This document shows, one piece after another, positions 39,568 to 40,119 of a stretch of 64,000 nucleotides of DNA (position 1 is the first letter of the stretch; the number at the start of each line of letters is the position of its first letter). A program made the translations under genes and the position numbers. Origin of the DNA: Escherichia phage Eryne. The stretch lies in the sequence record PQ529420; one strand, 5' to 3'. The notes under the pieces are model-generated. The model saw nothing but the letters and a program-made list of their open reading frames with translations. It did not search any database and was not told where the DNA came from.

Positions 39568-40119
39568 ATGCAAAACACCGATCTGACTTGGATAGAAGCC
39601 AAAGAAGCAATGTTAAAAGGCAAGCGCGTTAAACATAAATACTTTTGCGAAGGAGAATGGTTTGAAATGCGTAACCGATCCATTGTAGATGAAAAAGGGA
39701 ATGACATGCAACAATGGTTCAAAAATGAAATTTGGCAGGGAACAGGTTGGTCTATAGTTGAAGAGCAGCCTAGCCCAAGCGCACTGTTTAGCCCTATTAT
39801 GTATCGCGTTATCGGTGCTTTAGTTGTTGATCACGGGATTGCAGTGGAAAAAGAATGCTGGGAAGAGGTATCTTTTTTCAACCTGGCTTCTTATGCAAAA
39901 AGCCATATGCACTTGTTTGAAGAAGGGGATGAATTTGTTCTTCGTATGCGATATGGCAAAGAATTCAGATTACCACTTGATAACGATGTAGACACTGTTG
40001 TAAAATGGTTAGCAGAGCATTATGCTTACGATGCAATTTGTGGTCGCAGCTTCGGCAACGAACGCTGGGACATGATTTGTGAAAAATATGATTTTGAGCC
40101 GGAATACGGAGTTTTATAA
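39568..40119 (+). CDS. DUF2829/Tad2-like N-terminal domain protein (putative)
   Basis: Start at Met with GAGAGGAG SD (MQNTDLTW); N-terminus IEAKEAMLKGKRVKHKYF...GWSIVEE resembles DUF2829 pattern. Confidence 0.4.
   Translation: MQNTDLTWIEAKEAMLKGKRVKHKYFCEGEWFEMRNRSIVDEKGNDMQQWFKNEIWQGTGWSIVEEQPSPSALFSPIMYRVIGALVVDHGIAVEKECWEEVSFFNLASYAKSHMHLFEEGDEFVLRMRYGKEFRLPLDNDVDTVVKWLAEHYAYDAICGRSFGNERWDMICEKYDFEPEYGVL

Follow-up and report, generated by a model that had tools for sequence, protein, structure and literature searches.

An Insertion-Less Tad2-Fold Domain Fused by Inversion to an Uncharacterized Protein Family in a phi92-Like Coliphage

Introduction

Among the families of phage immune-signal sponges, Tad2 is the most widespread and the most versatile. 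Helix α1 mediates tetramerization of the protein, and an insertion between strands β2 and β3, which carries helix α2, forms together with β2 the V-shaped dimer of the tetramer; in HgmTad2 and SptTad2 the same insertion also forms a cyclic-dinucleotide pocket. The walls of the Tad2 ligand pocket are supplied by α3, the end of strand β4, and the loops β1-β2 and β3-β4. In SPO1 Tad2, gcADPR is contacted by W25/N26, W73, S76, T78, and D79, and in HgmTad2 the mutants W21A/N22A and S90A/T92A/D93A no longer bind gcADPR. Li et al. report conservation of the gcADPR site in ~99% of Tad2 proteins.

Surveys of Tad2 rest on sequence searches of the PF11195 type, which miss the small domain described here. 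This domain forms the N-terminal part (N-module) of the orthologue of Phi92_gp217, the product of an accessory gene in a phi92-like phage; the remainder of the protein (C-module) belongs to a different family. We compare both modules with the systems that they most resemble, reconstruct how they came to lie in one reading frame, and weigh the functions that the protein may have.

Materials and Methods

Two alignments underlie the comparison with Tad2, one of the N-domain family (A1, 33 sequences) and one of 16 bona fide Tad2 sequences (A4). The Tad2 sequences, that of SPO1 Tad2 among them, are those listed in the supplement to Yirmiya et al. (bioRxiv 10.1101/2023.05.01.538930); a scan of the first 50 kb of the SPO1 genome with the A1 HMM did not locate SPO1 Tad2. 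In a full-length stacked alignment (A3), MAFFT placed sequences that contain only the C-module wrongly onto the N-module, and each domain was therefore modeled separately. A narrower homologue search returned one protein for the full-length query and five for A1; phmmer and tblastn were used instead.

Results

The gp217 Orthologue and Its Neighborhood

The window, by which we mean the whole 64,000-nucleotide stretch of DNA analyzed, belongs to a phi92-like myovirus (Stephanstirmvirinae, Justusliebigvirus). Its positions 38500-41500 share 99.5% identity with Escherichia phage Paula and 98% with phi92. The coding sequence (39568..40119, + strand; ATG at 39568, stop codon ending at 40119) specifies a protein of 183 aa (21.7 kDa, pI 4.9). 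A ribosome-binding site, AGGAG (39555-39559, + strand), can be read in the sequence 8 nt upstream of the ATG, and the same site is annotated in phi92; an earlier note on this DNA had delimited the same reading frame and quoted its residues correctly. The product is 98% identical to Phi92_gp217, which is annotated as a 'conserved hypothetical protein', and 100% identical to a protein of phage muut; no mention of gp217 was found in the literature searched.

The gene heads a rightward operon, upstream of which lies a 119-bp divergent intergenic region (39449-39567) with a perfect TTGACA hexamer (39508-39513, + strand). A promoter scan upstream of the gene called no σ70 site, and no good −10 element was found for this hexamer, which is a candidate −35 element only. 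The neighbors are small accessory genes for a DUF7325 protein, a phage tudor domain, two membrane-like ORFs, and an AAA ATPase. The first of these, the gp216 orthologue (39158-39448, − strand; PF24011, E 3.8e-20), also has a sub-threshold match to LAGLIDADG_1 (E 0.0013, 20.0 bits against a cutoff of 23.1). The Phage_tudor ORF (38861-39145, − strand; PF24144, E 1.4e-25) is intact at 94 aa; in the phi92 reference genome, codon 26 of this ORF is an in-frame TGA, and the annotation gives no more than a 51-aa 'gp215'. The ATPase, gp221 (41028-42155, + strand; phrog_2376), matches nSTAND3 with 29.7 bits (cutoff 27.2, E 6e-7), more weakly resembles nSTAND_NTPase5 as well as clamp-loader and DnaC-like helicase-loader PHROGs, and is labeled 'FtsH-like protease' in some relatives.

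Two Modules in One Polypeptide

PHROG profiles divide the protein at residues 69/73: residues 1-69 match phrog_3474 (E 3.5e-26) and phrog_22208 (E 9.4e-27), and residues 73-182 match positions 1-109 of the 110 in phrog_11295 (E 2.9e-50), all three families being labeled 'unknown function'. The two kinds of family are separate proteins in most phages and form one polypeptide only in the phi92-type lineage. The N-module, residues 1-65 (39568..39762, + strand), is a minimal Tad2/DUF2829-fold domain (α1, β1-β4, a short α3, and β5) without the β2-β3 insertion. It is followed by a fusion linker, residues 66-72 (EQPSPSA; 39763..39783, + strand), which is bounded by the ends of blastn/tblastx matches at 39762 and 39784 and has no DNA or protein match in either of two unfused relatives, Phapecoctavirus anhysbys and Justusliebigvirus VEcB (MT932211). 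The C-module, residues 73-183 (39784..40116, + strand), corresponds to a formerly stand-alone phage protein of ~111 aa and has L73 (CTG) in place of the start Met. The earlier note had described an additional C-terminal region of ~110 residues; such a region exists, but rather than an appendage it is a once-independent gene, fused by inversion.

An exhaustive phmmer search against 1.8 billion representatives returned 46 relatives, three of which (P0010, P0023, and P0028) were discarded on inspection as spurious repeat proteins. Relatives of the N-module are mostly stand-alone proteins of 59-67 aa, some with unrelated extensions and one a tandem duplicate, and those of the C-module are stand-alone proteins of 100-116 aa. 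By tblastn, the N-module occurs in 401 phage records, all from Enterobacterales hosts, and its carriers include T4-like phages of Klebsiella and Citrobacter, rV5/phi92-like phages, Vequintavirinae, Felix O1-like phages, and Erwinia phage Y2. The C-module was found by profile search in more than 80 metagenome clusters, among which a Pfam annotation of any kind is carried by one weak match only. The fused form is present in 31 phage records, with 94-100% identity and an intact frame.

Several relatives have architectures or settings of their own. The tandem duplicate (P0019, 175 aa, from a metagenome) has mini-Tad2 modules at residues 1-71 and 79-151. In Phapecoctavirus and related metagenomic phages (anhysbys_64, locus L004, 1941-2384; P0003, P0011, and P0013), the module has a different C-terminal extension, with a D[FY]SALE[DK]K motif and a very basic tail that ends KGKGHNKLKKGKKK and suggests nucleic-acid binding. 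Citrobacter phage Moon (L005, 3995-4183) has a stand-alone mini-Tad2 gene of 62 aa, and in T4-like phages the gene lies in the variable small-ORF block between nrdH and gene 55. A C-module homologue on a 134-kb metagenomic phage contig (P0064; L008, 6001-6342) sits inside a replication module, with genes for a DnaB-type helicase and RNase H on one side and for DNA polymerase A on the other.

T4-like phages have the N-module only and no C-module, and no N-module was found within 6 kb of C-module homologues in metagenomic contigs. The distant homologues of both modules likewise lie among arrays of small genes that have no annotation; the neighborhoods of four of them held no informative annotated neighbors and no linkage of N- and C-module. 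Since the modules are unlinked outside Stephanstirmvirinae, their fusion is weak evidence for a joint function.

Origin of the Fusion

Relative to anhysbys and VEcB, a segment of ~1.25 kb (38513..39762) is inverted; it holds three leftward genes, the divergent intergenic region, and the N-module. In blastn comparisons, positions 38513-38861 and 39151-39669 of the window match VEcB in reverse and positions 38804-39762 match anhysbys in reverse, with colinear flanks in both cases. In anhysbys, the leftward genes at the divergent switch begin with that for the N-module (anhysbys_64, 147 aa), and the C-module gene (anhysbys_69, 112 aa) lies ~1.3 kb to its right in the rightward operon; VEcB has the same unfused order. 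The N-module match stops at 39762 (residue 65), and the start codon of the stand-alone C-module aligns with 39784-39786, where CTG (L73) is now found. No convincing inverted repeats were found at the breakpoints.

These alignments show gp217 to be a chimera of two autonomous modules brought in frame by the ~1.25-kb inversion; the intergenic region and the coding part of the N-module now lead straight into the C-module. The unfused state is ancestral because, in nearly every other phage, both modules stand alone. In VEcB, the N-module gene (vecB_213; L003, 1949-2128) is cut to approximately its first 31 residues, covering HMM positions 2-32. The C-module allele of VEcB is far more diverged than the flanking DNA and therefore points to mosaic recombination.

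The chimera is under purifying selection, as is shown by dN/dS values of 0.18-0.25 against phi92 and JohannJBalmer and, with small counts, by pairwise values of 0.16-0.27 per half (~0.2 in both); in one comparison the C-terminal half has no nonsynonymous change. It is very improbable that the inversion produced the fusion as a by-product, neutral or in decay, of which one half or both would have no function. The restriction of the fusion to one sub-lineage, the neighboring phages that do without it, the reduced N-module gene of VEcB, and the mosaic, rearranged state of the region would all suit such a by-product, but it is at odds with the low dN/dS of both halves, the frame that is intact in all 31 records at 94-100% identity, the retention of every hallmark residue of both families, and the preserved ribosome-binding site.

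The N-Module Has the Fold of Tad2

The first ~65 residues share the DUF2829/Tad2 fold and, in sequence, are remotely related to Tad2. The earlier note had called for a profile or AlphaFold-type comparison with Tad2, and both kinds bear the kinship out: hhalign of A1 against A4 gave a probability of 87-88% (pairwise E 3-4e-6), and 57 residues of the N-module superpose on Tad2 structures at 1.7 Å with 21-25% identity. The AF2 model of the N-module made from A1 (pLDDT 87.8) runs α1, β, β, β, short helix, β, and has the elements that define the Tad2 fold, namely α1, an antiparallel β-sheet, and α3 before the last strand. The best PDB sequence match of the A1 profile is SptTad2 (8wjd, E 0.088), 7 of the 33 family members have sub-threshold matches to PF11195 (best E 0.0028), and the protein matches phrog_2709 (E 1.8e-4) and phrog_6670 (E 5.5e-3), both of which are also matched by true Tad2 proteins. 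By sequence the link is weak, but all of the tests agree in direction.

In sequence searches with established models the protein goes unrecognized. Pfam reported no family for the gp217 orthologue even at E ≤ 10, an NCBIfam scan returned nothing, a single-sequence search of the PDB gave only noise, and an HMM built from the 16 Tad2 sequences, run with filters off, found nothing at the gp217 ORF at E ≤ 10. No canonical Tad2 was found elsewhere in the 64-kb window. The N-module is a family of its own, distinct from PF11195 as defined, and Pfam does not capture this insertion-less form. Of the earlier assignment of a DUF2829/Tad2-like N-terminal domain, the fold and the distant kinship therefore hold and membership of PF11195 does not; likewise, the first ~70 residues resemble the DUF2829 motif beyond chance, but L16 (for K) and H23 (for R) break the literal pattern.

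Two other anti-defense proteins were considered as identities for gp217 and rejected as unrelated: Atd1, an anti-TIR protein reported in Justusliebigvirus, is a MazG-like pyrophosphatase, and TadIV-1 (T4 vs.3) is helical.

The Insertion and the gcADPR Site of Tad2 Are Missing

The N-module lacks the β2-β3 (β2-β5) insertion of Tad2. In hhalign, both extended and global, a gap of 22-24 residues faces approximately residues 38-61 of SPO1 Tad2, and in the AF2 model strands 32-35 and 38-41 are joined by a two-residue hairpin (36-37). Three of the ten invariant Tad2 columns are kept in the alignment of A1 with A4 (G18, W50, and W61). The invariant W-N of the GWNGK β1-β2 loop, the first part of the gcADPR pocket, is absent, W25 being aligned by hhalign with F26 and N26 with C27; across the N-module family these positions hold an invariant F and mostly T. 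In the second part, W-x-x-S-x-T/A-D, the Trp is kept as W50, and S76 is replaced by N53 (G in the family), T78 by E54, and D79 by I55, although residue equivalences in this C-terminal half are of low confidence.

These departures bear directly on the proposal that the N-terminal domain is a working Tad2, which would oligomerize, sequester the Thoeris signal (gcADPR or His-ADPR), and protect the phage. In its favor, the domain shares the fold of two solved Tad2 sponges, every characterized member of this fold is a signal sponge, within a family of great functional plasticity, an aromatic pair is kept at the W25/W73 positions as F26/W50, and the gene is an accessory gene of lytic coliphages. However, the changes from W-N to F-C/T and from S-x-T-D to N/G-E-I fall at the positions at which alanine mutants of HgmTad2 no longer bind gcADPR, the family departs from the site that Li et al. 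found so widely conserved, there is no α2 insertion from which to build the V-shaped dimer, and PF11195 is not matched. We consider a working Tad2 distinctly improbable. The gcADPR-trapping residues of Tad2 are missing, and an anti-Thoeris role is therefore unproven.

A Conserved Residue Set of Its Own

The family to which the N-module belongs has its own signature. The A1 HMM detects the gp217 ORF with E 2.7e-31, and the residues A11, G18, F26, E30, E42, G44, W50, G60, and W61 are all present in the protein. The conserved set of the family comprises A11, G18, F26 (invariant), E30 (97%), E42 (94%), G44, W50, W56/Q57, G60, and W61 and, by topology, falls in two loops (β1-β2 and β3-β4), the end of strand β4, and α3, the elements that wall the pocket in Tad2. 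In the model, this pattern fits a putative binding surface that has been retained with a different chemistry. The conserved set could equally be the aromatic core of a very small domain: F26, W31, W50, W56, and W61 may be the hydrophobic core of the 62 residues, and E30 and E42 may be structural salt bridges.

As read from these residues, a sponge-like role with altered specificity would be possible but doubtful for the N-module. A broader form of this reading, in which mini-Tad2 is a new sponge clade for a signal bound by no known sponge of the fold and the C-module a second new anti-defense family, is likewise unlikely; the remodeled pocket may then consist of F26 and W50 with the invariant acidic residues E30 and E42, and the C-module family, with its invariant K-S, R-Y, and G-R loops, could be a ligand-binding anti-defense family.

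The C-Module

The AF2 model of the C-module (pLDDT 94.4, pTM 0.88) has one α-helix, five β-strands, and two helices, a fold like that of type III secretion system (T3SS) class-I chaperones and YbjN, with an immunity protein also among the fold matches; the model sets the fold class, not homology. A profile of 63 C-module sequences gave no link to Pfam or PDB sequences, and no sequence-level likeness to the chaperone and YbjN models (CesT, YbjN) was found. In BFVD, the proteins of the same fold are uncharacterized phage proteins only, including some from Vibrio and Tenacibaculum phages. The phrog_11295 family has an invariant K-S in a DLNTGAKS loop, an invariant R-Y, and a near-invariant G-R...N..W, and the C-module, which has a net charge of −10, contains all of the corresponding residues (K111, S112, R128, Y129, G159, R160, and W167).

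The fold, size, and acidity of the C-module, typical of T3SS class-I chaperones and YbjN, together with the immunity protein among its matches, favor a reading in which the mini-domain is an oligomerization or protein-docking module without a small-molecule ligand and the C-module binds and neutralizes a host or phage protein. The N-module is indeed fused to many unrelated extensions (a second copy in tandem, the basic tail of Phapecoctavirus, and further domains at the C- or N-terminus), and helix α1 of Tad2 is itself a tetramerization element. This division of labor is nevertheless rather unlikely: most N-module genes encode stand-alone proteins of 59-67 aa, which means that the module must be functional by itself, the invariant charged residues E30 and E42 would be unusual in a pure scaffold, and the K-S, R-Y, and G-R loop residues of the C-module resemble a ligand site more than a groove for binding peptides.

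Discussion

The locus encodes an insertion-less, pocket-remodeled Tad2-fold family that lies outside Pfam and is here fused to an uncharacterized family. As an overall picture we lean, by a little, toward gp217 as an inversion-made chimera that acts as an early accessory binder and whose N-module is not a canonical gcADPR sponge. The protein would be made early, which is proposed only because of its promoter-proximal position in a block of small accessory genes, and would be a binder, not an enzyme. Lacking both the insertion and the contact residues of Tad2, the N-module cannot work in quite the same way; its binding surface is most likely the counterpart of the Tad2 pocket, for which the β1-β2 loop (F26, E30), the β3-β4 loop (E42, G44), W50, and α3 (W56, Q57) are candidates, and its ligand would be other than gcADPR, perhaps a segment of a protein or some other signal derived from a nucleotide. 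The acidic, chaperone-like C-module probably dimerizes and binds a polypeptide or ligand on its own, and the two modules need not cooperate.

If the insertion-less form of 62 aa does bind a signal, it would define the minimal core of a sponge, and anti-signaling counter-defense would widen to several major groups among the lytic coliphages and the Klebsiella phages of therapy collections, including the BASEL phage Bas62 (JohannJBalmer). If it binds none, it marks the limit at which 'DUF2829-like' ceases to imply anti-Thoeris activity, a limit useful to annotation pipelines that pass on 'Tad2' by fold. In addition, the locus offers a clean, datable case of gene fusion by inversion at a divergent promoter, for which natural fused and unfused alleles exist for comparison.

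Among known systems, the C-module is closest in architecture to T3SS class-I chaperones (ShcF/AvrPphF ORF1, ExsC, SpcS, SycT, and Spa15) and YbjN proteins (DR_1245 and AmyR), with which it shares the α-β5-α-α sandwich topology, its size (~12.7 kDa), and its acidic pI (4.7); however, identity to them is only 6-22%, and phages of this kind have no T3SS. The invariant loop motifs of the C-module, DLNTGAKS, RY, and GR[DS][YF]xNxxW, are not known from the T3SS chaperone and YbjN families.

The N-module shares its core topology with SPO1 Tad2, HgmTad2 (AcrIIA7, 8KBI), SptTad2 (8WJD), and ModTad2 (9EIB): an N-terminal helix, an antiparallel sheet, a short α3, and a terminal β-strand ending in W-x-I-V-E are common to all, and the N-terminal helix-strand segments align at the profile level. 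Proteins of both families are small and acidic, are encoded by phages, and often occur in fusion with other domains. The N-module is shorter, however, at ~62 aa against 81-104 aa for Tad2, and its family falls outside the ~99% pattern of gcADPR-site conservation. Where Tad2 has the GWNGK loop, the N-module family has (H)xYF(T/C)xxE, and where Tad2 has W-[LV]-[AP]-S-Q-[TA]-D-x-L-A-E-D-W, the N-module family has W-[YF]-x-G/N-E-x-W-Q-x-x-G-W. Finally, the domain lies N-terminal to its fusion partner in gp217, whereas the extended Tad2 proteins in Yirmiya et al. carry it C-terminally.
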